From positions 4,941-68,940 of the forward strand of contig CALMAY010000037.1 of NCBI GenBank assembly GCA_937861125.1: a stretch of 64,000 bases of DNA, written 5' to 3'. The DNA is from an uncultured bacterium. Lineage in GTDB: Bacteria; Patescibacteriota; Patescibacteriia; Magasanikbacterales; UBA922. Made by a program: the position numbers and the translations under genes. The notes beneath the pieces were generated by a model. That model was not told the origin of the DNA and made no database searches. It saw only the letters and a list, made by a program, of their open reading frames with translations. Position 1 is the stretch's first letter, and the number at the start of each line of letters is the position of its first letter. This document shows, piece after piece, positions 3,546 to 60,743 of the stretch.

Positions 3546-3563
3546 ATATTCATGTATGTTATT

Positions 3564-3690
3564 TTGTCATTCCGACCGAAACGAAGTGAAGTGGAGGAAT
3601 CTCTTTCTTACATCTGACCTAGCCAGAACGAAGTGAAAGATAGCACAGAAACTTACGAAAGGGATCCCTCGGCTTCGCTCGGGATGACAA
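3564..3690. repeat. MITE-like palindromic intergenic element, copy 1 (GTCATYCCGAGC...GGRATC family)
   Basis: Termini are TTGTCATTCCGACCGAAACGAAGTGAAGTGGAGGAATC and GGGATCCCTCGGCTTCGCTCGGGATGACAA. It aligns end to end with the reverse complement of 60608-60731. Confidence 0.85.
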
Positions 3691-10933: not shown

Positions 10934-11041
10934 TCTGGGCGCTGACCTACTCTTGCCTTGCGACTACCATTGGCGCTGACAGGCTTAACTGCTGTGTTCG
11001 AGATGGGAACAGGTGGACCCCTATCGCAAAAAGCACCCAGA
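10934..11041 (-). rRNA. rrf: 5S rRNA
   Basis: The reverse complement reads UCUGGGUGCU...CCACCUGUUCCCAUCUCGAACACAGCAGUUAAGCC...GGUAGUCGCAAGGCAAGAGUAGGUCAGCGCCCAGA. Helix I is a 10-bp terminal pairing. Flanking sequences extend the stem. Confidence 0.93.
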
Positions 11042-11140
11042 TTCTATGTCCTTTTGAGACGTAGAAATGTGATGAAATGAATACGTATTTAAGGAAGTGT
11101 TTTTCGTTTCTTTCAGTGGTACATTGGAAAAGCACAACTT

Positions 11141-14168
<3,028 letters not shown>

Positions 14169-14390
14169 CAATTGTGCTTCGTAAGTGCTTTTATCTGCGC
14201 TTAAACAGATAAAAAGCGCTTCGTTGTACTATATGCTTCCCCACCATAGGAAAACAATATAGCTGCATTTTTTATACCCTAATTTGTTTCTTTAAATACG
14301 TATTCAATTGTAATGGTCAATCAGATTCATTCATCACAGTGTGACTACAACGTGGTTGTAAGAACACTGTGAGAAACGAGGGTGAGAAAC

Positions 14391-17158: not shown

Positions 17159-18583
17159 ATGGACTTTTCTGAACTTAGAGAGAGTGTATTAGACAAAACA
17201 CCCGGACTCAAACACGCACTCAACCGATATGGTGACATGTCACTTTTGACATATTTCAATACCTTTTCTCACATCTCTTTCCCAGTATCAGAAACCAAAA
17301 AAGATGAAATTACAAGCACAGTCTACGACTATATCGCACGCACGATCGACCCAATTGTCGCCAATCGTGTTGCATCAGAGTTTCACACATCATACTACGT
17401 CTCGACTGCTGACCATCACCATCCACAGACACATCCCTACTCACTCAGCAGCTCCCTCGTTCAGTCTCACGTTGCTACCAAGTCGGGACGAAACACTGTA
17501 TGTATTTTTTCCTGCTCAGGCATATCGATGAACAACAATTCATCACCACGCGGACCACTGTTTCATACTGACACATTGGACGAACAACGACTTCCGCTTT
17601 TTAGTCTAGGACACAAACATCATCCAGTCTATGGGCTACCAGCATATACATCGCAGCAGCTCAAAAAAACGCAACAACTTTTAGCTGAAAACAAACATGT
17701 TACAGATACACAAAAAAAGATTCTTGTACCACTTCTCCAACATATATACGGTACCAGTACAGCTCAATCTCTACACTACTACTCTGAACAACTCACACAT
17801 ACCAATTATCACCTATGGAAACTACTGCCAGAACAGTCCCACATCGACCTCGCTATTATCCCTCAAGAAGATATAGTAAACACACTCTTGATCAAATACC
17901 ATTTGGGAATGAACAGCACTATTGACAAACTCTTACACGAACAAGCATGTTTGGAACGTTTTGAACTTTGTTTTGATGGAATTGATGGCGCATTTTCTCT
18001 GAATGAACGTACAGGCACGTTTTTGTTTTGGGCGATTGTCGACGGAGAACGCAAGGCGCTCTGGCACAACAATGGAACACTGCAAACAGAAGACGCCTCA
18101 TATACCATTACACTCACACCAGAATCAATCACACACGCACTCCAAAATAAAATACTGATGCCGAGCATGGCATTGACGTACATTGTCATTTCGTTCTACT
18201 ATGGAGTTACCTGTGGCGGTGGTTTTTTGCAAGGAAGTTACCTTTCAAAAATGAAATATGCCTACCTTAAATGGCTTGACGCAATAAACGGAGCAACTGA
18301 AGAAAGAAACCAAGTAGAGATGCTTGAGACAGACCTTGTGATGGCAGATTTTTCTTTTTTGACACTCACACACAATGATACGATTGTTCCCGCCACCACC
18401 TTTGATCTGCTCCTCTACCCACAAACAAATCCAAACCACTCTCTGTCTTCATATATAGATAGCTGGACACTCAAGGAAGCAGTGGACCAACTTATGCCGA
18501 TGTTTTACAAAATTCTTTTTCATACAGACAGTAGTATTTCCTCACCCAAAACACCACACACACCATTTCTCTATGTCAAATAA
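17159..18583 (+). CDS. hypothetical protein (474 aa), no recognised family
   Basis: Long ORF with host-like composition. It overlaps the downstream ATP-grasp gene by 11 nt. Confidence 0.7.
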   Translation: MDFSELRESVLDKTPGLKHALNRYGDMSLLTYFNTFSHISFPVSETKKDEITSTVYDYIARTIDPIVANRVASEFHTSYYVSTADHHHPQTHPYSLSSSLVQSHVATKSGRNTVCIFSCSGISMNNNSSPRGPLFHTDTLDEQRLPLFSLGHKHHPVYGLPAYTSQQLKKTQQLLAENKHVTDTQKKILVPLLQHIYGTSTAQSLHYYSEQLTHTNYHLWKLLPEQSHIDLAIIPQEDIVNTLLIKYHLGMNSTIDKLLHEQACLERFELCFDGIDGAFSLNERTGTFLFWAIVDGERKALWHNNGTLQTEDASYTITLTPESITHALQNKILMPSMALTYIVISFYYGVTCGGGFLQGSYLSKMKYAYLKWLDAINGATEERNQVEMLETDLVMADFSFLTLTHNDTIVPATTFDLLLYPQTNPNHSLSSYIDSWTLKEAVDQLMPMFYKILFHTDSSISSPKTPHTPFLYVK

Positions 18584-19775
18584 CACGACGACACAAAAAA
18601 AATGTCTTGCCTGTGGCAACAACCCGACTCATCATACCATGACATGGTTCAACCAAAGTTCAACCATCTTTATGATGGCATTTAGTCGCAGTACTGCATC
18701 GCTCTTTTTGTACCCAATTGTCTCAAAAACAATTGATTGGCTCTTTCGCTACTGGATGCTTTTGTTACTCAAATGTGGCATTGTCACAATCAATACTGAC
18801 ATTGATAAAGCACCAAGCTATCGTGGCAAAGTACTGTGGGAAGAAGCGCAAGCACGTGGTATACCAATGCACAACTTTTTTACATTCAACAAAGCCACGG
18901 ATATTTACGAAGCCACGGTAAAAGGAAAACATATCTTTTTTACTGGCCTCCCACGTCCAGCAGCAACCAAGACAGGATCAGAGTGGTGGCTCGATGACAA
19001 ATGGATCCTCAAGCAGAAACTCATGGCAGCCAACCTTCCCGTCGCACGCGGAGGTGTCTTTACTACATTTGCTCCCATGCGAGAATTATTCAACCAGCTC
19101 GAAAAACCAGTGATCATCAAACCACGCCTCGGATCACGTGGTCGACATACAACCACATATATCACCACAGAAGACCAACTTCGTGACGCGTTTACCAGTG
19201 CCAAACAACTCTGCCACTGGGTAATCATGGAGGGACATCTCATCGGCAGTGTCTATCGTGCCACCATGGTGGACAATAAACTCGCAGGCGTGCTCAGTGG
19301 TGACCCACCACGTGTGACAGGAGATGGCACGCACACTATTGCAGAACTCATTGAACAAAAAAATGCAACCAGACATCCTGGAATCAAAGATGTCGTCCCG
19401 ACAAATGCACACCACACATTTTTGTCTCGTTTAGGACTCACACTTCAGAGCGTACTACCCACAGGAAAAACCATTGACCTACTAGAAAAAATCGGTGTCT
19501 CATACGGTGGCAACAGTGGCGAGGTAACGCACCTCACACATCCAGAAATTAAACGAATATTAGAAGAAGTGGCCAAAGTGGTTGATGACCCCATCGTCGG
19601 TTTTGATTTTATCATCGAACACATCGACCAATCCCCACATACCCAAAAATGGGGTGTCATTGAATGTAACGGCGTTCCATTTATTAATTTGCATCACGAC
19701 CCAATTGAAGGACCATCAAACAACGTGGCAGCAAAAGTATGGGATTATGTGGAGGCGCATGTCGATGAACTGTGA
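18573..19775 (+). CDS. ATP-grasp ligase, cyanophycin-synthetase (CphA) N+G-domain-like, with an N-terminal hydrophobic region
   Basis: VIIKPRLGSRGRHTTTYITTEDQLRDAF...GSVYRATMVDNKLAGVLSGDPPRVTGDGTHTIAELIEQKN parallels the CphA ATP-grasp core. There is no Mur-ligase-like domain (400 aa). Residues about 25-70 are hydrophobic. Confidence 0.7.
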   Translation: MSNNTTTQKKCLACGNNPTHHTMTWFNQSSTIFMMAFSRSTASLFLYPIVSKTIDWLFRYWMLLLLKCGIVTINTDIDKAPSYRGKVLWEEAQARGIPMHNFFTFNKATDIYEATVKGKHIFFTGLPRPAATKTGSEWWLDDKWILKQKLMAANLPVARGGVFTTFAPMRELFNQLEKPVIIKPRLGSRGRHTTTYITTEDQLRDAFTSAKQLCHWVIMEGHLIGSVYRATMVDNKLAGVLSGDPPRVTGDGTHTIAELIEQKNATRHPGIKDVVPTNAHHTFLSRLGLTLQSVLPTGKTIDLLEKIGVSYGGNSGEVTHLTHPEIKRILEEVAKVVDDPIVGFDFIIEHIDQSPHTQKWGVIECNGVPFINLHHDPIEGPSNNVAAKVWDYVEAHVDEL

Positions 19776-19814
19776 TCACACAACACACAAACACTGTAGC
19801 ACAGAAACACACGA

Positions 19815-19941
19815 CGTCATCCTGAGCGGCTGAACATAGTGAGGGAGTCGAAGGATCCCGACCACCCCAACAGTAATCAAACATTTTTAAACATTCGTTA
19901 GTGTACAAGCACTGGGATCCTTCACTGCGTTCAGGATGACG
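19815..19941. repeat. MITE-like palindromic element, copy 2
   Basis: Termini CGTCATCCTGAGCGGCTGAACATAGTGAGGGAGTCGAAGGATCC and GGGATCCTTCACTGCGTTCAGGATGACG. Confidence 0.8.
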
Positions 19942-19990
19942 TGTATACAAAAAAAGATTCTTTACACAAAGAATCTTTTTTAATACATTT

Positions 19991-20299
19991 TTATCGTTCA
20001 AATATGACGAGAAGTATTGGACCTTTGTCAATTACTTTCCCCACAATACCATTGAGATACGGCCTGAGTAATGATTGAACACGTCTCTTCATAGCGCCAG
20101 TACCAGTACCGCAGACAATCCCACACCCATTTTCTCCAGCATTCGACATATCAGTAATAAATCGATCAATATCTTGTTCTACATCGTCTGGCATCCTACC
20201 ATGCAAATCAATTTCTTTAAGTGTCCTATGTTGATACGCCAATTCAACCGCAAATATTGCAGCATCTAAATGTTTTTTTGGACTTTCTGAAAACGACAT
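19991..20299 (-). CDS. Smr-domain protein
   Basis: IDLHGRMPDDVEQDIDRFI...GCGIVCGTGTGAMKRRVQSLL fits the Smr pattern (DLHG ... HGxGxG). 102 aa. Confidence 0.7.
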   Translation of the reverse strand: MSFSESPKKHLDAAIFAVELAYQHRTLKEIDLHGRMPDDVEQDIDRFITDMSNAGENGCGIVCGTGTGAMKRRVQSLLRPYLNGIVGKVIDKGPILLVIFER

Positions 20300-20305
20300 A
20301 AAAGG

Positions 20306-20340
20306 TGTGCCCAGAGGGAGACTCGAACTCCCTTGGCTTT
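20306..20340 (-). pseudogene. duplicated 3' fragment of tRNA-Leu (att-like direct repeat)
   Basis: 20306-20332 (TGTGCCCAGAGGGAGACTCGAACTCCC) is identical to 21224-21250, which is the T-arm and 3' acceptor strand of the intact tRNA-Leu. No 5' half is present. Confidence 0.85.
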
Positions 20341-20375
20341 ATCAACAGGTAAAATTAGTCTTGAGATAAATATTT

Positions 20376-21125
20376 TTAACCAAGCTTTGCTAAATTCTTG
20401 CGGCAAATAGAACAATTGCAATTATTTTCTTCAATTAACACTTTTCCGCCGAAAGGTATTGAAACGTGGGTAATGATAGCGCTCCAGTATTTGAATTTTT
20501 GTTTCAGGTTACGAGCAGTCAAAAAATTTCTCAGATAATTAGCTAAATTTTTGTCCCAAGTTTCTAAATCCTTAAGCATTCTTTTGTTGCTTACCCACCA
20601 TTTCCGATTTATTCGATAATATATTTTAAGCACGTCATCAATTCCACCGTTCATACAGAGCAACGCAGCATGTGGATCTTTTTTTAAATTCCGCCTTACT
20701 TTATTATCACAATTGTAAATCAGATATTGCTGAAATTGGTACTCCGTTTTAGCAAACCCAATCCGTTTCATCTTACGAGTGGCTTGTCGTAGTTTTTTTA
20801 ACTTACCTGTCTTATCAAACAAAATAATAGATTCAGCAATGAACGGTATACGTTCAGATTTGGTTATTTGTTTCTCAGTCAGTTTTAACAATTGGTCGTA
20901 AGGGAAAAAAGTAATATCTAATTTGATTCCTTCAATAAAAGGGTGGTTAACCTGCTCGCAGTATGTAGAGTCTCTCACAATCACTCTGACATCCAAATCA
21001 CTATCTTCTGTAATTTCACCCCGAGCAACGGAGCCAAAGATAAAAGCACCTACATAACGATCATCGCTTTCGAGCTTTTTTACTATGTTGATCGCTTGTT
21101 TGAATTTTTGCGATAAAACAGACAT
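20376..21125 (-). CDS. nucleotidyltransferase-domain protein (MNT/KNTase-like) with a helical C-terminal domain
   Basis: N-terminal Pol-beta-type NTase motif GAFIFGSVARGEITEDSDLDVRVIV. The C-terminal half is helical and contains RNLKKDPH (RX6H-like). 249 aa. Confidence 0.7.
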   Translation of the reverse strand: MSVLSQKFKQAINIVKKLESDDRYVGAFIFGSVARGEITEDSDLDVRVIVRDSTYCEQVNHPFIEGIKLDITFFPYDQLLKLTEKQITKSERIPFIAESIILFDKTGKLKKLRQATRKMKRIGFAKTEYQFQQYLIYNCDNKVRRNLKKDPHAALLCMNGGIDDVLKIYYRINRKWWVSNKRMLKDLETWDKNLANYLRNFLTARNLKQKFKYWSAIITHVSIPFGGKVLIEENNCNCSICRKNLAKLG

Positions 21126-21225
21126 AGGTTAAAACTGTCACTGAGGATTATTACCGCTCAACTTATTCAAAATTTTTTCTCCTATACAAATAGCCACAAC
21201 ACTAACCCTCAGGTCGTCTGCAATG

Positions 21226-21306
21226 TGCCCAGAGGGAGACTCGAACTCCCATGCCTTGCGGCGTCTGCTCCTAAGGCAGGTGCGTCTACCATTTCGCCAT
21301 CTGGGC
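21226..21306 (-). tRNA. tRNA-Leu(UAG), CCA not encoded
   Basis: Reverse complement: GCCCAGA-UG-GCGAAAUGGUAGACGCA-CCUGC-CUUAGGA-GCAGA-long variable arm-GGGAG-UUCGAGU-CUCCC-UCUGGGC-A. The anticodon loop CUUAGGA gives UAG. Confidence 0.9.
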
Positions 21307-21406
21307 GCGAAATATACACAGAATACTACTGTGTTTTACTCCATCTGTCAATCGTACGTGCGATGAATTTACAAATTGATCAGTTAACCAATAACCAGGT
21401 AACTGT

Positions 21407-22027
21407 CTAACTTACCAACTGATTAACTGACCCACTTCCCATATATCGCTCCACCGTCGAGACCACCGCCTGAATCATCGGATCAATCTCCACATTCACC
21501 TTCTCCCCTACTTGCTTTCTCCCAAAGGTTGTTTTTTCAATTGTCTCTGGAATCAATGCGACAGAAAACGTACCCGCTTTTGCATCGGGATCAATAACAG
21601 TGAGACTGCACCCATCCAACCCAATAAATCCTTTTTGAAAAATAAATTTCATGTACTGTGGATCAATCTGAAATGTCCAACGATTTTCAATGATCGAAAC
21701 AATTTCCGCAGTTGTCATCACATGTCCACTCATCACATGTCCACCCACCTCGGCACCAAAACTCATCGAGCGTTCGATATTTACCTTACTACCAATCTCA
21801 AGCGTACCAAGGTTGGTACGACTCAGCGACTCTGCAATCACATCAAAGGTCGCATGACTCTGCTCATATGAGACGACTGTCAGACACGTACCAGATACAG
21901 ATACACTCGCACCAATCTGCACACCATCAAAAAGCCCATCAGATGAGGTAAGGACAAACGTACGGATACTGTCATGATCAGTGATCGATGTGACTGTAGC
22001 CATGCCTGAGACGATGCCGGAGAACAT
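21407..22027 (-). CDS. ribE: riboflavin synthase (alpha chain)
   Basis: MFSGIVSGMATV..., GASVSVSGTCLTV, GGHVMSGHVMTTAEI, GFIGLDGCSLTV and LIPETIEKTTFG match the duplicated-barrel riboflavin synthase. I chose the start at MFSGIV (22027). Confidence 0.9.
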   Translation of the reverse strand: MFSGIVSGMATVTSITDHDSIRTFVLTSSDGLFDGVQIGASVSVSGTCLTVVSYEQSHATFDVIAESLSRTNLGTLEIGSKVNIERSMSFGAEVGGHVMSGHVMTTAEIVSIIENRWTFQIDPQYMKFIFQKGFIGLDGCSLTVIDPDAKAGTFSVALIPETIEKTTFGRKQVGEKVNVEIDPMIQAVVSTVERYMGSGSVNQLVS

Positions 22028-22186
22028 ATAGAAAACTATACAAAATACATGGATAACGATACACGAGACTGATAAAAAAAGCAAGAAAAAAGACCATCAT
22101 TGATAGACGATCTTTTTTAAAAAAAGTAAAGTTTAACATCTTCTATATACGCTTATCAATATTGTTTATCTCCAAAATATCCCTTT

Positions 22187-22714
22187 TTAGTCTTCTCCAT
22201 ATGGTTTTTTAAAAGCTTCCCTTGCTTCCGGTGTCATGCTTTCAAAATAATTAATACATGCATTAATTTCCATTGTATCCAACACAGTTTTTGAGATACC
22301 AACTAAACCGCCAAGGTTTTCCATAATTTTTGGAGGGATGGCCTGTTGTGCTTTCTTGACAGTCTCAATTGCACGACGCATAGATGTAATATATCTATCT
22401 ACACTAGATTCATTCTCTTCATCTTCGCCCATTTGATGCATATATGTTTCCTCCTCCTCGGACACACCAATAACCTGCACTATCGCATCTGTTATAAAAA
22501 TAACATCATACTCTCCGATGTACTTTTGCTTGTATCTAAAAGTAACATTCTCAACACCACTAGCTACTGCAGCAATAGCCTCATACGGATCTGTTTTAAC
22601 GTTCTCTCTTAGCTCCCTCTCTCTTTTCTCTCTTAAGTGATCTCTTAAGATTATCGACTCTTCTGTTGGTTCTTCTGGCATTCTTGGTAATGATTCTGGC
22701 ATAAAATGTAACAT
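22187..22714 (-). CDS. hypothetical protein (175 aa)
   Basis: ORF only; charged, helical-looking sequence with no recognised motif. Confidence 0.5.
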   Translation of the reverse strand: MLHFMPESLPRMPEEPTEESIILRDHLREKRERELRENVKTDPYEAIAAVASGVENVTFRYKQKYIGEYDVIFITDAIVQVIGVSEEEETYMHQMGEDEENESSVDRYITSMRRAIETVKKAQQAIPPKIMENLGGLVGISKTVLDTMEINACINYFESMTPEAREAFKKPYGED

Positions 22715-22771
22715 AGCTCAGATAACTCTGATAATACAGATATATTACCCCCTCCTACAACTTTTCGTCAA

Positions 22772-22806
22772 TAGAAACAAAAAACACTCACCATCCGGCA
22801 AGTGTT
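22772..22806 (-). terminator. intrinsic terminator after pnp
   Basis: AACACT...AGTGTT stem, followed on the minus strand by TTTTTTGTTTC. Confidence 0.55.
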
Positions 22807-22835
22807 TTCATCTCAATCTTATTCTTAATGTTCAA

Positions 22836-47685: not shown

Positions 47686-47756
47686 CACCCTCCAGTTCCC
47701 CCTCCCACTCATATCAATATGTTTGATACGAATGGCAGTGGCTGGAAGGTGAGTTC
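47686..47756. repeat. R1a: 71-bp three-tier hairpin module (3' flank of cassette A)
   Basis: 70/71 identical to 48488-48558. Outer stem CACC(C/T)TCCAG/CTGGAAGGTG, middle stem CCACT/AGTGG, inner stem TATCAA/TTGATA. On the minus strand this copy is followed by GGTTTTTTG. Confidence 0.9.
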
Positions 47757-47783
47757 TCAAACCACCCCTCAATACAAACGGAT

Positions 47784-48365
47784 TCAATCCCGTGGAGGAA
47801 CACCAGACATTAACCCATCACGGATCTTGTCGATTTCTGCAATAATGTGTGCAGCTCCAACAGGATCAATCCGAGAAAATGCCGATGTCCACTCTTCAGC
47901 GCGATTAATGGTCATTGGAATGTACCCTGTACCAACGCCGCTCAGTGCAGATTTGTGTGTGCCAAGCTCATGGGCAGCTTGCTCCAGAGTCCACCCCCGG
48001 ATAGTTTTCCAACGATGTATGAGTTGTACTACTCGTTGCTGACGTGGCAACAGCCATACTTTATCCTCTTCGTGGACAGAATTCTTGCGCATCACACCCC
48101 TTCGAACAGCTGCGGGTCCAGACACAGGCGCAACAGGTACCGGCACAGCAACCTCGGGGGCAGTCGGTGCCGGTGACGAAATCACATGTTGGATAATCGC
48201 CGGTGTAGGATTTGCACCCTGCAAAGAAAACCCACCGTACTCAACCAAGAACCCAGCGTCTTTCAGGTCACCCAACATCTTACTGAGCACAGATGTCGCT
48301 GCCTCCAGATCTTCGATGCGAACCACGACAACCACCTGAACCTTCTGGAGCGTTTTATGCGCCAT
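47784..48365 (-). CDS. GC-rich orphan protein A with a C-terminal XRE-like HTH
   Basis: 193 aa, with RBS AAGAGGT 7 nt upstream. A Pro/Ala linker (PAPTAPEVAVPVPVAPVSGPAAV) is followed by GWTLEQAAHELGTHKSALSGV (HTH-like). Sampled lines are 60-65 % G+C. Confidence 0.65.
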   Translation of the reverse strand: MAHKTLQKVQVVVVVRIEDLEAATSVLSKMLGDLKDAGFLVEYGGFSLQGANPTPAIIQHVISSPAPTAPEVAVPVPVAPVSGPAAVRRGVMRKNSVHEEDKVWLLPRQQRVVQLIHRWKTIRGWTLEQAAHELGTHKSALSGVGTGYIPMTINRAEEWTSAFSRIDPVGAAHIIAEIDKIRDGLMSGVPPRD

Positions 48366-48387
48366 GACTCTACCTCTTGTGTTTGAA

Positions 48388-48460
48388 ACCAGGGACCATC
48401 CCCAGCCTTCATACTAGTCACAAAATATATGAATAGTATGAAAGTGAGGATGGTGTTTGT
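48388..48460. repeat. R2a: 73-bp 5' module (promoter/operator-like) of cassette A
   Basis: 71/73 identical to 48937-49009. Contains the inverted repeat CATACTA-N17-TAGTATG, and on the minus strand a TAGTAT box and a CTGGGGA-TGG-TCCCTGG hairpin. Confidence 0.9.
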
Positions 48461-48487
48461 TTTGATTGGAATGACCATACGAACTTT

Positions 48488-48558
48488 CACCTTCCAGTTC
48501 CCCCTCCCACTCATATCAATATGTTTGATACGAATGGCAGTGGCTGGAAGGTGAGTTC
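48488..48558. repeat. R1b: 71-bp hairpin module (3' flank of cassette B)
   Basis: See R1a. Confidence 0.9.
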
Positions 48559-48583
48559 CGATTCCACTCCGATGCACGAAGGA

Positions 48584-48916
48584 TTACCCGACACCAAGAA
48601 GGATAGCGTTCGAATGCTTTGCAGCACGCGCCTGCTTGCCGTCATCTTGTCGTACAATCCATCTGTCTTTTTCGAGACAGTAGGCACTCATGACGATGCC
48701 ATTGTCTACGAAGTACAGACGTATAACTGCCCTACCAAACTGCATTTCTCCTCCATGCTCCTTGGTGAGCATGTCAAACGTCGTGCGGTTTGCTGGGGCA
48801 ATCCCCAAGCGAGTGAAGGCCTGTGAAGGCCTTTCCTCAGCTTCAATGACACGCGAATGAAGGCGAACCGTAACGCCACTACTCAGCGTGAACACATCTT
48901 GTTTTTTTCTGCTCAT
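48584..48916 (-). CDS. GC-rich orphan protein B
   Basis: 110 aa from the ATG at 48916 (MSRKKQDVFTL...), which directly follows R2b. The ORF-track call to 49114 reads through the repeat. About 55 % G+C in the sampled line. No family recognised. Confidence 0.55.
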   Translation of the reverse strand: MSRKKQDVFTLSSGVTVRLHSRVIEAEERPSQAFTRLGIAPANRTTFDMLTKEHGGEMQFGRAVIRLYFVDNGIVMSAYCLEKDRWIVRQDDGKQARAAKHSNAILLGVG

Positions 48917-48936
48917 TTTTTTCCTTTGAAAGAATA

Positions 48937-49009
48937 ACCAGGGACCATCCCCAGCCTTCATACTAGTCACAAAATATATGAATAGTATGAAAGTGGAGAT
49001 GGTGTTTGT
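48937..49009. repeat. R2b: 73-bp 5' module of cassette B
   Basis: See R2a. Confidence 0.9.
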
Positions 49010-49178
49010 ATATGAATTGTAATGTGCTTTCCTCTTTTGTGAGGATGAGATACTATATCGTACTGATACATTTTTATCAATAATCCTTATATATACAAAT
49101 TTTATAAATACCATAAATATGCATAATTTTAGCTTTGTATAGCAAAATATTTATACACACAAATAATATAAAATATTT

Positions 49179-52685: not shown

Positions 52686-55600
52686 ATGAGACACCACACT
52701 TCTTACACACTCACGTTGCTCGTATTGCTCGTGAGTGTTTTTTATTTTATTCAAAATGCTCGTGCTACCTCGAGTGATATCCACATCAACGAGATCGCCG
52801 CATTTGAATCTACTGGAAATGAATGGATTGAAATTGTAAATAATGGATCTGAACCGATAGAACTCACAGGCTGGAAATTTGTCGAAGCAGGGGTCAATCA
52901 CGGACTTACTCTCGCACAAGGATCTGATATGGTTCTTGGACCAGACGAATATGCAATTATTACCCAAGATGCCACGGTATTTGTTGCTGCATACCCAAAT
53001 GTCACGGTACGTATTTTTGATAGTTCTTGGGGTACACTCAACGAAAGTGGTGAACTCATTGGACTTCGTGACGCAAATGGAAACATGGTTGAAGAGTTTA
53101 CATATGTTAGTGCACCTGATTTTTCACTCGAACGAAAAGAAAATATATCAGACTACACAGCATCAAACTGGATACAGCACCCAAATGGACAGACTGCCGG
53201 CACAGAGAACTACTGGACGACCAATGAACCAACCGAACCTATTGATACTGCTCCTGTTTCTATTATCACCGCGCCAAACTCTGGATCGATCAATGTACCA
53301 ATCTCGTTTGACGGCAGCGCTTCCACTGATGACATAGGTGTCGTCACATATACCTGGGACTTTGGCGACGGAACCACAGAGAACTTAGCCACAGTACAGC
53401 ACACATATACGACAGCTAGTACATATACCGTTACACTCACTGTCTCAGACCTCGCACTCCAAACACACACGACGAGTCACGCTATTACTATCACAGACAC
53501 AAGCACGACAACACCGCCTACTGGTTTGGCAACAGATATTCGTATCAATGAAATTGTCTCTGATCCACAAACAGAAGATGAGTGGATAGAACTCTACAAT
53601 ACCAGTGCAAGCAATGTCTCACTAGTTGGATGCACGCTTTTAGACGGAGTAGGTACAATTGCAACACTGACAGAGAACGTGTCAGCAAATGAATTTATCG
53701 TATACGAACTAACTAGTGCAAAACTCAACAATGCTGGTGACATAGTACAACTCAGCTGTAATAACATTATTATCGACTCAGTATCCTATGGTACTTGGGA
53801 TGACGGAGATACAAGCAACAACGCACCCACACCAACCAAAGGAGAAAGTATTATCCGTTTTCCAAATGGGACTGATTCAAATAACGACTCAATAGATTGG
53901 ACCAAAACAACAACTATAACGAAACAAGCACCTAATACACAAACAAATGTATCTTCCAACGCAAGTACATCAACCTCTCAACAGGGTGGTGGAAGCAGTG
54001 CCCCAACACCACCTCCCACGTTTGCCCCAAGCACACTCATCATCAATGAATTTGTCAGTGACCCAGGAGATGAAGGAGTTGAATTTATTGAACTCTACAA
54101 TCGCACAGCTACAGCCATTGATCTCACACGTTGGTATATAGAAGATGGGAGCGAAGCAAAAACTGCACTTACTGGTACTATCAATGGATTTGGATATATC
54201 GTCATTGAGTCACCAAAAGGACAACTCAATAACGCAGGTGATCAAATTACCCTCTATGACCCATCAGACAGAGAAATAGACCGTGTCACCTATGGCACGT
54301 GGGATGATGGAAACACAAGTGACAACGCACCAGCACCAAACGATCCATACAGTCTCGCCCGCAAAACCAATGGTCAAGATGCAGATAACGATCTCTATGA
54401 TTTTATCAAGACAGATACAATCACCAAAGGGAAATCAAATATCATCACCAACACAAATGCAAATCCAGATGAGCTCCTCCAAACAATTACCCAAGCACCC
54501 GCCAATACCAAAAGTATTGTCATAAATGAAATCTACCCAAACCCACCGGGAAGCGATAATGATGATGAATTTATAGAAATCAAAAATATAGGTACTGAAA
54601 CCATCTCGCTCACTGGGTGGAAACTTCAGGACGGGAGTAGCAGTGGAGGATACACACTTCCCGCTACAACACTCCCACCAAACGGGCTCATCGTCATCAA
54701 ACGCACACAGAGTACTCTCGCACTCAACAATAGTGGTGGCGAAGATGTGCGACTATCCCTAAACAACGGTGCACTCGTCACCAAAGTAAGTTATACCGGT
54801 AGTGTCGCGGATAACATGAGTTATAGCCGCACAACAGATGGAAATTACGTATGGAGTACCGTCGCCACACCAAATAAAGAAAACATCATTGCCGCAAAAA
54901 ATAGCGCACCAAAAGTACTTTTTGATGCAGACACAGATGTACTGGTTGGTGAGACAATTTCATTTGACGCATCAGATACAACCGATTCAGATACCGACAC
55001 CCTAACTTTTATTTGGGACTTTGGTGACGGAGAAAGTGCGACAGGTGACGCAGTCGAACATGTCTACATGAAACGCGGCATCTACACCGCCAAACTCCAA
55101 GTCACTGACTCACAAAAAAATACCGTTGAAAAACGAGCAGTCATCACTGTTCGTGAAGACGAAGGAGATACAGAGATACTCATGAGCAGTGAACTACCGC
55201 CGGGCCTGCGTATCAATGAAATATTCCCAAATCCAACTGGCTCAGATGATGCTGAATTTATCGAGCTCTACAATGATAGTGACGAGACAATCACCCTCTC
55301 AGGACTCAAGCTGGATGACGAAGACGGTGGCTCGCGACCATTTGTCTTTGACGACGACACCTTTATAGAATCCGGAGAATACCGTGTCTTTGGAAAATCA
55401 GAAACCAAGCTGGCACTCAATAACACCAATGATAGTATCCGGCTCCTCGATGGAAGCAATAGCGTGCTTACAAGTGTTGACTTTGACGGAGTTATTGAAG
55501 GTGCAAGTTACTCATTCACCACAGATGACATATGGCAATGGTCGAGTAAACCAACTCCAGGAGCAAAAAATAATGCGACACTCGCAAAAGAAAAAGGAGT

Positions 55601-56399
55601 ACGAAAAACAAAAAAGACAAAAACAGGTGGTGCCGTTATCAGTACAACACTAGACAAAGTACGCGAAGAAGATGTCGGTGACCGTGTACAAGTCACTGGA
55701 GTAGTTGCTGTACTTCCTGATATTTTTGGGACACAGTACTTTTATATTGTCGGCGAACAAACACCACCTGCCAGCGGCATTCAAATATACTCGTACAAAA
55801 AAGATTTTCCCAACCTCTCAGTAGGTGATATCATTACCGTCACTGGAGAGATTTCTGAATCAAACGGAGAAACGAGAATCAAAACTAGTGAACAATCAGA
55901 TATGGTTCAGTCAGGAACGACGCTAAATATTGTAGCCTTTCCTCTTGAAACCACAGAAATTGGAGAGTCAGTAGAAGGTGCATTTATTCGAGTAAGCGGC
56001 GAAGTGACAGAGAAAAAAGCGTCATATCTGTATCTCGACGATGGTGTAGGGGAAATAAAAATATACTTTAAGAAAAATACTGGTTTAAGCGGTTCAGAAT
56101 TTCAAGTAGGTCAAAAAATTACTGTATCAGGAATTGTCAGCGAGACACGCAGCGGCTATCAGCTCATGCCACGAGATATCACTGACATCACATACGAACA
56201 AGCAGTAGAAAAACTAGATATAGAGACTAACAGTACACACTCTTCATCAGTAGCAGAGACATATCTCACTGCAACAGCGGGAGGTCTGACATCAATTCTT
56301 TTGGGTCTTCTTGCCAAAGCACGCGGCGCTGTCGCGCTTGCTTTTTTGAAACGTGTTGGAAACATTGCACTAGCGCTTGTAAAAATAAAACGCGGATGA
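52686..56399 (+). CDS. giant surface protein: 5 lamin-tail domains, 2 PKD domains, 2 OB-fold-like domains and a C-terminal TM anchor
   Basis: Five LTD signatures (INEI..x..EWIEL/FIEL.N......L.GW.L.D) begin near aa 33, 285, 452, 612 and 845. There are two PKD motifs, TYTWDFGDGTT...YTVTLTVSD and FIWDFGDGES...YTAKLQVTD. Also has a signal peptide and a C-terminal hydrophobic anchor. Confidence 0.8.
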   Translation: MRHHTSYTLTLLVLLVSVFYFIQNARATSSDIHINEIAAFESTGNEWIEIVNNGSEPIELTGWKFVEAGVNHGLTLAQGSDMVLGPDEYAIITQDATVFVAAYPNVTVRIFDSSWGTLNESGELIGLRDANGNMVEEFTYVSAPDFSLERKENISDYTASNWIQHPNGQTAGTENYWTTNEPTEPIDTAPVSIITAPNSGSINVPISFDGSASTDDIGVVTYTWDFGDGTTENLATVQHTYTTASTYTVTLTVSDLALQTHTTSHAITITDTSTTTPPTGLATDIRINEIVSDPQTEDEWIELYNTSASNVSLVGCTLLDGVGTIATLTENVSANEFIVYELTSAKLNNAGDIVQLSCNNIIIDSVSYGTWDDGDTSNNAPTPTKGESIIRFPNGTDSNNDSIDWTKTTTITKQAPNTQTNVSSNASTSTSQQGGGSSAPTPPPTFAPSTLIINEFVSDPGDEGVEFIELYNRTATAIDLTRWYIEDGSEAKTALTGTINGFGYIVIESPKGQLNNAGDQITLYDPSDREIDRVTYGTWDDGNTSDNAPAPNDPYSLARKTNGQDADNDLYDFIKTDTITKGKSNIITNTNANPDELLQTITQAPANTKSIVINEIYPNPPGSDNDDEFIEIKNIGTETISLTGWKLQDGSSSGGYTLPATTLPPNGLIVIKRTQSTLALNNSGGEDVRLSLNNGALVTKVSYTGSVADNMSYSRTTDGNYVWSTVATPNKENIIAAKNSAPKVLFDADTDVLVGETISFDASDTTDSDTDTLTFIWDFGDGESATGDAVEHVYMKRGIYTAKLQVTDSQKNTVEKRAVITVREDEGDTEILMSSELPPGLRINEIFPNPTGSDDAEFIELYNDSDETITLSGLKLDDEDGGSRPFVFDDDTFIESGEYRVFGKSETKLALNNTNDSIRLLDGSNSVLTSVDFDGVIEGASYSFTTDDIWQWSSKPTPGAKNNATLAKEKGVRKTKKTKTGGAVISTTLDKVREEDVGDRVQVTGVVAVLPDIFGTQYFYIVGEQTPPASGIQIYSYKKDFPNLSVGDIITVTGEISESNGETRIKTSEQSDMVQSGTTLNIVAFPLETTEIGESVEGAFIRVSGEVTEKKASYLYLDDGVGEIKIYFKKNTGLSGSEFQVGQKITVSGIVSETRSGYQLMPRDITDITYEQAVEKLDIETNSTHSSSVAETYLTATAGGLTSILLGLLAKARGAVALAFLKRVGNIALALVKIKRG

Positions 56400-60607: not shown

Positions 60608-60731
60608 TTGTCATCCCGAGCGAAGCCGAGGGATCCCTTTCGTAAGTCATTGTAAAACTTTTCACTTTGTTCTAGCTAAATCAAATATAAGAAAGAGATT
60701 CCTCCCCGCTATGGCGTGGTCGGAATGACAG
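60608..60731. repeat. MITE-like palindromic element, copy 4 (inverted relative to copy 1)
   Basis: TTGTCATCCCGAGCGAAGCCGAGGGATCC ... GATTCCTCCCCGCTATGGCGTGGTCGGAATGACAG. Its reverse complement aligns along the whole length with 3564-3690. Confidence 0.85.
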
Positions 60732-60743
60732 TGTTATAAACAT

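Follow-up and report, generated by a model that had tools for sequence, protein, structure and literature searches.

Elements that keep attL and attR attachment sites and have no genes for integration or transfer have been described as cis-mobilizable elements (CIMEs; PMC5704250, PMC6323972), and decayed elements flanked by partial tRNA genes are likewise known (10.1101/2020.12.28.424599, PMC5704250). The segment usually recombined by integrases that target tRNA genes comprises the T-stem, the T-loop and the acceptor's 3' half (bioRxiv 10.1101/2020.11.02.365908). Here we describe a 0.9-kb islet next to a tRNA-Leu(UAG) gene in a 64-kb stretch of contig CALMAY010000037.1 (the whole of which we call the window), and we compare it with these systems. 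It resembles CIMEs and decayed tRNA islands, including the tycheposon remnants of Prochlorococcus (PMC5704250, PMC6323972, 10.1101/2020.12.28.424599), in that attL- and attR-type repeats bound it, one of them being the 3' end of an intact tRNA gene, in that genes for integration or transfer are missing from it, in its accessory cargo and in the empty site seen in relatives. It differs from these elements in its size of only 0.9 kb with one gene, in having no debris of a parent element, in its host, a Magasanikbacteria-like member of the candidate phyla radiation (CPR), and in that its unit also occurs at a second site that does not look like a tRNA gene. Unlike the tRNA-gene islands that bear an integrase, the islet has no integrase gene.

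A further comparison is with integron cassettes and with the elements that borrow host Xer recombinases (integrative mobile elements exploiting Xer, IMEX). The islet may be likened to these by its single open reading frame (ORF) with a 3' recombination site, a recombinase that would act in trans and a presumed small circle. However, its site is a mimic of a tRNA 3' end rather than an attC hairpin or dif, and it has no integron platform or array, which leaves a mechanistic analogy only. We read the islet, with somewhat better than even confidence, as an integrase-less, att-flanked, CIME-like islet that arose by Campbell-type recombination and carries a probable small-molecule nucleotidyltransferase (NTase).

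The islet, its repeats and the empty sites in relatives

The 27-mer TGTGCCCAGAGGGAGACTCGAACTCCC has exactly two exact copies in the window, at 20306-20332 and 21224-21250; no third copy with up to three mismatches was found there, and none was expected from 100 shuffles. An intact tRNA-Leu(UAG) gene, the integration target, lies on the minus strand at 21225-21306 according to ARAGORN and at 21226-21306 according to Rfam (RF00005, 55.4 bits), and its 3' 25 nt are contained in the left, attL-type repeat copy (21224-21250). Read on the tRNA strand, the repeat is made up of GGGAG-TTCGAGT-CTCCC (T-arm, 17 nt), TCTGGGC (acceptor 3' strand, 7 nt), the discriminator A and CA, and it covers exactly the T-stem, T-loop and acceptor 3' half of tRNA-Leu. 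At the attR-type orphan copy (20306-20332), which is followed by the native upstream flank of an Smr gene, Rfam found no tRNA. The preliminary description of this DNA, made from the sequence alone, had reported a 27-bp duplication of the tRNA-Leu 3' end with one intact and one orphan copy, and both the exactness of the copies and the integrity of the tRNA bear this out. Similarity continues imperfectly for 7 nt beyond the repeat (5/7 matching; 34 nt in all at 94%). Just before the core, AAGCCAAG matches the tRNA bases AAGGCATG at 6 of 8 positions, with a local alignment score of 29 against a shuffle maximum of 11.5; tRNA similarity that reaches imperfectly into the right arm would be expected of an attP site.

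Between the repeat copies lie 891 bp with only one intact ORF, at 20376-21125 on the minus strand (249 aa), as the preliminary description had also found. The inserted unit measures 918 bp and consists of a 98-nt leader or left arm (21126-21223, minus strand), in which no promoter-like site was called, the single gene, a 43-nt tail or right arm (20333-20375, minus strand), whose last 8 nt are AAGCCAAG, and the 27-bp tRNA-like site. Its DNA is indeed richer in AT than its surroundings, with a GC content of 0.35 versus 0.43 for the window, and by GC the gene ranks second from the bottom among 48 genes (z = -2.0); its GC3 is not outlying (z = -0.65). The compositional signal is real but modest. 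An identical arrangement was seen in about 16 independently assembled contigs, and the islet is therefore not an assembly artefact. The contig break at the tRNA in SRR14234033 gave no information on polymorphism between empty and occupied sites.

Relatives were located via the 90%-identity clusters of two flanking genes, those for riboflavin synthase (RibE) and polynucleotide phosphorylase (PNPase); members of the RibE cluster led to contigs L007, L064 and L063. In L007, L008 and L065 the order is RibE, tRNA-Leu(UAG) and Smr with no gene in between, Smr starting 5-14 nt after the tRNA, and tblastn found no NTase at these three loci. This is the empty site for which the preliminary description had proposed to search, with tRNA-Leu directly beside Smr, and its presence in three related genomes agrees with the attL/attR signature of tRNA-gene integration that had been claimed from the repeats. 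By blastn against these relatives the flanks are 84-90% identical and exactly window positions 20340-21221 remain unaligned, and in each relative both aligned window segments include the duplicated stretch, by which they overlap. The 83 nt that comprise the tRNA and two further bases are 100% identical in L007, L008, L064 and L065, and an unoccupied site would be expected to read AAGGCATG, the 27-mer and CCTTTTATGTCG. Past the core, the junctions are ...GGGCACA-TTTTTT-ATGTCGTTTTCAGAA in L008, ...GGGCACA-TTTTT-ATG in L065 and ...GGGCACA-CTAGTATTCCTCT-GTG in L007; in the window the orphan copy continues as GGGCACA-CCTTTT-ATGTCGTTTTCAGAA, a flank that matches the empty site of L008. The repeat is not part of a larger tandem tRNA duplication, which had been named as a finding that would speak against integration. 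The islet is a genuine insertion, and its simplest history would be one gain on the branch leading to the window. RecA places the host among Candidatus Magasanikbacteria, with about 82% identity to named metagenome-assembled genomes (MAGs) and 91% to the L008 contig.

Arrival of the unit and its second context

In structural terms the islet is a CIME-like, non-autonomous element, with identical 27-bp copies and without recombinase or transfer genes. The observed layout runs from the tRNA body through the core to the left arm of the element, and from its right arm through the second core to the native downstream flank; this is what Campbell-type recombination classically yields when a circular DNA with a tRNA-like attP meets the 3' end of a tRNA gene. 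We counted the fact that the original downstream flank has stayed with the orphan copy in favor of insertion. In the mechanism that we propose, circular incoming DNA with a tRNA-like site would have recombined with the identical 3' end of tRNA-Leu(UAG), the tRNA would have been rebuilt from element DNA, and the displaced original 3' end would have stayed behind as the orphan before Smr. The predicted attP or circle junction would read GATAAAGCCAAG-27-mer-TTGCAGACGACC. The recombinase would most likely have been a tyrosine integrase of the T-loop/3'-end class, acting in trans or since lost; we infer both the circular intermediate and the type of recombinase. No recombinase was found in the islet or among the about 46 larger ORFs of the window (no match to Phage_integrase, Resolvase or Recombinase), in line with the earlier statement that no integrase is present. 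Among the window ORFs no IntI-like gene was found, and no parent integrative and conjugative element, integrative and mobilizable element or cognate integrase was found in the window.

The unit has a second context on L072, a 1.4-kb contig (1-1431) from Logan SRR31051132. The protein encoded there (P0120) is the only other member of the 90% cluster of the NTase and differs by 4 substitutions; its coding sequence is 98.4% identical to that of the window, and the differences (8 synonymous, 4 non-synonymous) gather toward the two ends. The L072 leader, which contains a fully conserved 22-nt block (GTAGGAGAAAAAATTTTGAATA), is 75% identical to the window leader, and the tail is identical at 33 of 34 positions. 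This unit, too, ends in a tRNA-like fragment, GGGAGTTCGAGTTTCCCTCTGGCTATA, which matches the 27-mer at 23 of 27 positions. Its surroundings are different: the right flank is, instead of Smr, a gene of the short-chain dehydrogenase/reductase (SDR) type for which no named relatives were found, and the left flank consists of 28 nt that are not a tRNA end, with CTATATTTACGAT on the left side of the unit. Position C61 is universally conserved in tRNA (the G53:C61 rule). The L072 fragment has a T at this position, which suggests a relic that the unit carries and not a newly made copy of a functional tRNA. Within the contig, the 28-nt left flank is matched best at the right border by CTATA(TTT)TTTACGAT, with 13/16 nt and a shuffle p of about 0.01, where the repeat copy begins at the last 5 nt of the tRNA-like fragment. 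The unit has accordingly come to lie at two loci at least, and the tRNA-like site travels with the gene.

The divergence between L072 and the window is a mosaic, amounting to 25% in the leader, about 3% in the first 80 codons, 0.4% in the central 160 codons and about 28% in the last 9 nt of the tail and the core, with differences that are almost all transitions. This pattern points either to recombination among copies of the cassette or to hypermutation at its ends. The leader was also considered as a small ORF or as the 3' remainder of a gene since lost. When translated, it can be aligned with the L072 leader if an in-frame indel is allowed; we rejected this possibility, and the leader is probably non-coding, because the differences, mostly transitions, show no bias toward third codon positions (7/6/6 across the three positions).

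Several results weigh against integration as we have drawn it. Neither the 27-mer nor its 20-mer sub-core had a match in IMG/VR, which yielded no donor or sister elements, and the 29 contigs with the 27-mer in JGI metagenomes all have it in single copy, in unrelated tRNAs and contexts. Neither a recombinase nor an excised circle nor an attP junction was seen. The left flank of L072 is only 28 nt long and its flanking repeat is marginally significant, and the contrast between unit ends that are 75-85% identical and a coding center that is more than 99% identical does not suit a simple recent transposition. Furthermore, we saw no flanking repeats of note of at least 11 nt at 23 loci that carry homologues of the NTase, and no tRNA-fragment repeats within 3 kb of the homologues that adjoin a tRNA.

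The strongest competitor, a possible explanation that we nevertheless rate clearly below the one we prefer, is that the islet is what remains of a larger island or prophage that had its own integrase, was integrated at tRNA-Leu and then lost its interior in one deletion from the attL core to the NTase leader. The islet would then be an immobile remnant and L072 an intact or larger relative. In L072 the reading frame runs on without a stop as far as the left contig end, in a flank that is not tRNA, and this would fit such a relative; but a direct repeat only 7 nt away from that left boundary suggests that the unit ends there too, and the fragment with T at C61 appears to be a carried relic. Decayed elements that keep partial-tRNA repeats are common (PMC5704250, 10.1101/2020.12.28.424599), and the NTase gene sits 43 nt from the attR core, like a terminal cargo gene; yet the islet holds no pseudogene debris, and its non-coding DNA amounts to only 98 and 43 nt. 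On this view, the place where homology between the two copies breaks off is automatically where the deletion ended, although the deletion must in this case start 0-2 nt from the core. Between a unit that traveled as a small cassette and the stump of a larger island, we lean slightly to the small cassette because the unit recurs in the second context. Thus, where the preliminary description had offered a decayed element or a minimal mobilizable cargo, the absence of an integrase stands, and the choice of a small cassette is a slight lean only.

A stronger version of integration by a small circle holds that the 0.9-kb unit is a single-gene cassette, non-autonomous but active, made up of an ORF and a site like a tRNA 3' end, which a chromosomal or helper tyrosine recombinase moves in trans. 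We regard this as unlikely; if it were true, the second locus, where the unit has a separate flanking repeat, and the enrichment of family members beside tRNA genes, described below, would be footprints of repeated insertion.

The nucleotidyltransferase and its family

The sole cargo gene (20376-21125, minus strand) encodes a 249-aa protein in which a Pol-beta NTase domain precedes a helical C-terminal domain and a CxCxxC motif lies near the C-terminus; FGSVARGE...SDLDVRV and RNLKKDPH can be read in it. Pfam NTP_transf_2 matched residues 13-99, the Pol-beta NTase core, at 2.2e-8, which confirmed the Pol-beta-type domain proposed earlier. The AlphaFold2 model of the protein (pLDDT 94.8) had its best Foldseek match in the kanamycin nucleotidyltransferase (KNTase) and aminoglycoside nucleotidyltransferase (ANT) ANT(4')-Ia (6p01, 6nmk, 1kan), at E 3e-8 and a template modeling (TM) score of 0.60-0.64 over 248-251 columns, that is, over the full length. 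Next came 3c18 (rank 5), LinB, ANT(6) and ANT(4')-IIb. Only partial matches were obtained to HalB (TM 0.33-0.41) and to antitoxins of the minimal nucleotidyltransferase (MNT) type, CCA-adding enzymes ranked far lower than the ANT and Lnu enzymes (TM 0.28), and viral structures matched worse, at TM 0.43 at most. By its predicted fold, the cargo is a stand-alone nucleotidyltransferase of the KNTase/ANT(4')/Lnu structural type. With ANT(4')-Ia/KNTase, Lnu(B)/LinB, ANT(6) and ANT(4')-IIb it shares a length of about 250 aa, a Pol-beta NTase domain with GS, DxD and a third Asp, and a helical C-terminal domain; an FDxTG-type motif is shared with LinB and HalB, and a comparison of the family profile with LinB (E 7e-5) includes it. 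Unlike these ANT and Lnu enzymes, to which it is about 12% identical, the protein has no KNTase_C match, and it belongs to a family marked by a Cys56 and CxCxxC site of its own and by conserved K142, K181 and D191.

In an alignment of 88 sequences, G31, S32, S42, D45, F103, D104 and K181 are invariant and D43, D70, K142 and D191 nearly so. Cys56, Cys236, Cys238 and Cys241 occur together in 73 of the 88, and all five sequences that have no C-terminal cysteines are also without Cys56. Because Cys56 co-varies with CxCxxC, the alignment suggests a single four-Cys metal site, probably for Zn and specific to the family, that would join a loop of the N-terminal domain to the C-terminal tail. A possible relationship to DUF4037 proteins, represented by PDB 3c18 from Exiguobacterium, is suggested by the succession of an NTase and a helical domain; the window protein scores 16.4 bits against a Pfam cut-off of 22.1, and 10 of 43 family members match (E <= 0.05, best 1.8e-5). 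Since DUF4037 proteins are not known to have a function, this link adds no mechanism.

We predict, tentatively and with slightly less than even confidence, that the enzyme transfers a nucleoside monophosphate from a nucleoside triphosphate with Mg2+ to the hydroxyl of a small molecule, plausibly an antibiotic-like compound. What speaks against this function is that identity to any characterized enzyme is about 12% and that all of the partial NCBIfam matches, including those to ANT(9), lie far below cut-off. The scores for ANT and Lnu families are 15-19 bits against cut-offs of 340-525, among them LnuB at 15.4 (cut-off 525) and LnuF at 15.1 (cut-off 450), and ANT_4p_I reached 14.6 bits against 350. 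The neighbors that resemble resistance genes are anecdotes, seen at 2-3 of 23 loci, and in a distant relative, P0358, the NTase-like domain has lost the catalytic aspartates of DxD. The resistance-type nucleotidyltransferase suggested in the preliminary description therefore holds as to the KNTase/ANT(4')-like fold and fails as to the family cut-offs, which were not reached.

The loci behind these remarks are as follows. At L033:5001-9391, in a low-GC MAG of Gammaproteobacteria, an NTase homologue precedes two ABC-F 'ribosomal protection-like' genes, which score 447 and 400 bits against a cut-off of 380. At L009:5001-7684 a homologue adjoins an MsbA-like ABC exporter, and P0358 (840 aa) has its distant NTase relative fused to the N-terminus of an ABC exporter (ABC_membrane and ABC_tran; hhalign probability 98.5%).

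A role in defence was also weighed, in which the gene would be a component of a toxin-antitoxin system, as a fusion of MNT and HEPN (type VII), or a HalB-like part of a Hailong-type anti-phage system. We consider this improbable. Over the NTase core there are weak partial matches to the NCBIfam models HalB (6.9e-7, 29 bits) and MntA (1.2e-5, 25 bits), and PADLOC reported matches to candidate systems over residues 4-57; these scores are far under the cut-offs of 190 and 60 bits, and only the generic GS...DxD core is covered. HalB structures are among the Foldseek matches, but at the TM values given above they stand well behind ANT(4'). KNTase C-terminal domains are classed with HEPN-like bundles, which counts for the idea, and the preliminary description had seen in RNLKKDPH an RX6H-like string that might be related to HEPN or KNTase_C. 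In the 88 homologues, R145 is conserved in 77, whereas the most frequent residues in the column of His152 are A, D, L and E and His is outside the top four, and none of 43 family members has a HEPN or KNTase_C Pfam match. The islet holds a single gene, and neither a partner nor an effector such as HalA is conserved beside 23 homologues. No homologue was found in phage or plasmid collections. On these grounds (the His that is not conserved, the missing HEPN match and the missing partner gene) the reading as a HEPN toxin-antitoxin or defence fusion was rejected.

The family itself is rare and patchy, with members of 42-52% identity in Patescibacteria, Chloroflexota, Gammaproteobacteria and Acidobacteriota. 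About 90 full-length homologues with 34-52% identity were collected from Patescibacteria and other sources; the GTDB representatives belong to Ktedonobacteraceae, Chloroflexia, Gammaproteobacteria, Patescibacteria and Luteitalea. Only 70 cluster representatives of 1.84 billion reach E <= 1e-30. Apart from the L072 copy, the nearest homologue is 52% identical and comes from other phyla. There were no relatives in IMG/VR or phage records, and the plasmid set gave one marginal match, to a Bacillus chromosome, and nothing else. Across 23 homologue loci no neighbor gene is conserved.

The gene is the immediate 3' neighbor (within 200 bp) of a tRNA at 5 of 27 loci, a position that 7 of the 252 other genes at these loci share (p = 0.003, with an odds ratio of about 8); the window was ascertained via its tRNA, and without it the count is 4 of 26. 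The adjacent tRNAs are Leu, Thr, His, Met and Gly, in both orientations. We found no conserved sequence in the spacers between tRNA and NTase of the window, L025 and L070 and no orphan T-arm motifs near the homologues, and among the family loci only the window copy keeps a tRNA-fragment repeat. As far as these neighborhoods can indicate, the pattern fits an accessory gene that has repeatedly been delivered to tRNA hot spots. The closest named homologue (L070:4503-6238, 51% identity, CPR MAG GCA_030699045.1) lies between tRNA-Gly and tRNA-Pro; its locus also contains a tRNA-Arg, a CCA-adding enzyme, a tRNA_bind protein and, 2.3 kb off, a Xer-like tyrosine recombinase, and no flanking repeat was found there.

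These associations could instead mean that the enzyme acts on the 3' ends of tRNA or other RNA, in the manner of CCA-adding or MenT-like enzymes, and that adjacency to a tRNA is functional and not a footprint of integration, an explanation to which we give as little weight as to defence. It draws on the enrichment beside tRNA genes, which falls to 4 of 26 without the tRNA-ascertained window, and on the CCA-adding enzyme and tRNA_bind protein at L070 and a tRNA_bind gene near L069. However, 22 of the 27 loci have no nearby tRNA, and where there is one its identity and orientation vary, as island hot spots would give; the full-length fold is that of small-molecule ANT and Lnu enzymes, and CCA-adding enzymes reach a TM of 0.28. 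Finally, it is very improbable that no mobile element was involved and that the locus reflects a decayed local tandem duplication of tRNA-Leu or an ancestral gene deleted in relatives: recombination between the 27-bp copies would regenerate exactly the empty site, but only 6 of the 8 nt before the orphan copy are tRNA-like and nothing beyond them is, all three relatives lack the islet, including L008 with its shared ATP-grasp genes, the gene has low GC and a nearest homologue of 52% identity in other phyla, and the unit also sits at an unrelated locus in L072.

Transcription, surroundings and significance

A sigma-70-like promoter of tRNA-Leu (TTGACA-17-TAGTAT, 10/12 matches) lies at 21323-21351 on the minus strand. 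No other good promoter match was seen on that strand upstream of the islet and Smr, and its sequence is kept in L007, L008 and L065. Since Smr begins only 5-14 nt after the tRNA in the relatives, it must share the tRNA promoter. Inside the islet neither a terminator nor a good promoter was called on the minus strand, and for this reason we think that read-through from the tRNA promoter probably accounts for expression of the NTase, in a unit of tRNA-Leu, NTase and Smr. An AT-rich hairpin with a T-run after Smr (19950-19981), recognized by reading the sequence, is the likely terminator of this unit; it is conserved in L008 and L065 and was missed by the terminator scan, its stem having no G-C pairs.

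The Smr-domain gene (19991-20299, minus strand; 102 aa, Pfam Smr 4.5e-9) is the native 3' neighbor of tRNA-Leu and has been displaced by 918 bp. On the other side, the gene for riboflavin synthase (21407-22027, minus strand; two Lum_binding domains, Pfam 1.4e-43) is the conserved upstream neighbor. Beyond these, the neighborhood of tRNA-Leu varies among relatives, as seen when window positions 22100-22830 and 17159-19775 are compared with L007, L008 and L065. The interval from PNPase to RibE holds a 175-aa ORF in the window, three ORFs in L008, a 325-aa ORF on the opposite strand in L065 and no ORF in L007. A pair of genes for 474-aa and 400-aa (ATP-grasp-like) proteins beyond Smr is not found in L007; L008 shares the adjacent ATP-grasp genes with the window, yet is without the islet. 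Between the ATP-grasp-like gene and the Smr terminator, a 174-nt segment (19776-19949) forms a long hairpin (DNA fold -26.6 kcal/mol, z = -4.2) and has no counterpart in L008 and L065, where the same flanks are about 9 or 0 nt apart. This second small, lineage-specific insertion lies 360 bp from the islet and may be similar to a miniature inverted-repeat transposable element; no second copy occurs in the window.

Elsewhere in the window, genes for 23S (11146-14161) and 5S (10934-11040) rRNA lie on the minus strand with no adjacent 16S gene, flanked by inverted repeats (11075-11156 and 14153-14309) that presumably form processing stems. An intergenic element of about 150 nt occurs in two copies in opposite orientation, 57 kb apart, at 3552-3690 and 60608-60743, which form a 98-nt inverted pair (86% complementary) and an adjacent 26-nt pair. 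At 47686-49009, two sets of direct repeats (83 nt at 93% and 74 nt at 97%) surround two small ORFs, 47784-48365 and 48584-49114 (both minus strand), neither with a Pfam match; the repeats resemble a recent local duplication. Within an ORF of 1237 aa (52686-56399), repeats of families D4 and D7 recur about every 500 bp.

Islets without an integrase that are flanked by att sites at a tRNA gene are already known as a kind; what is new here is a very small member, in a CPR host, with an uncharacterized NTase. It represents a clean but fairly ordinary horizontal gene gain in bacteria whose mobile elements and routes of transfer are poorly known, and for which an occupied site, three empty sites and boundaries at single-nucleotide resolution are all at hand. 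The islet shows that integration at a tRNA 3' end can leave behind, or bring in, no more than a single gene. Its cargo marks out a rare, uncharacterized branch of ANT/Lnu-like proteins and is a candidate for a new enzyme that modifies small molecules or antibiotics. If the unit were indeed an active cassette, it would represent a mechanism of gene shuffling not yet described, a tRNA-targeting analogue of integron cassettes in CPR bacteria.

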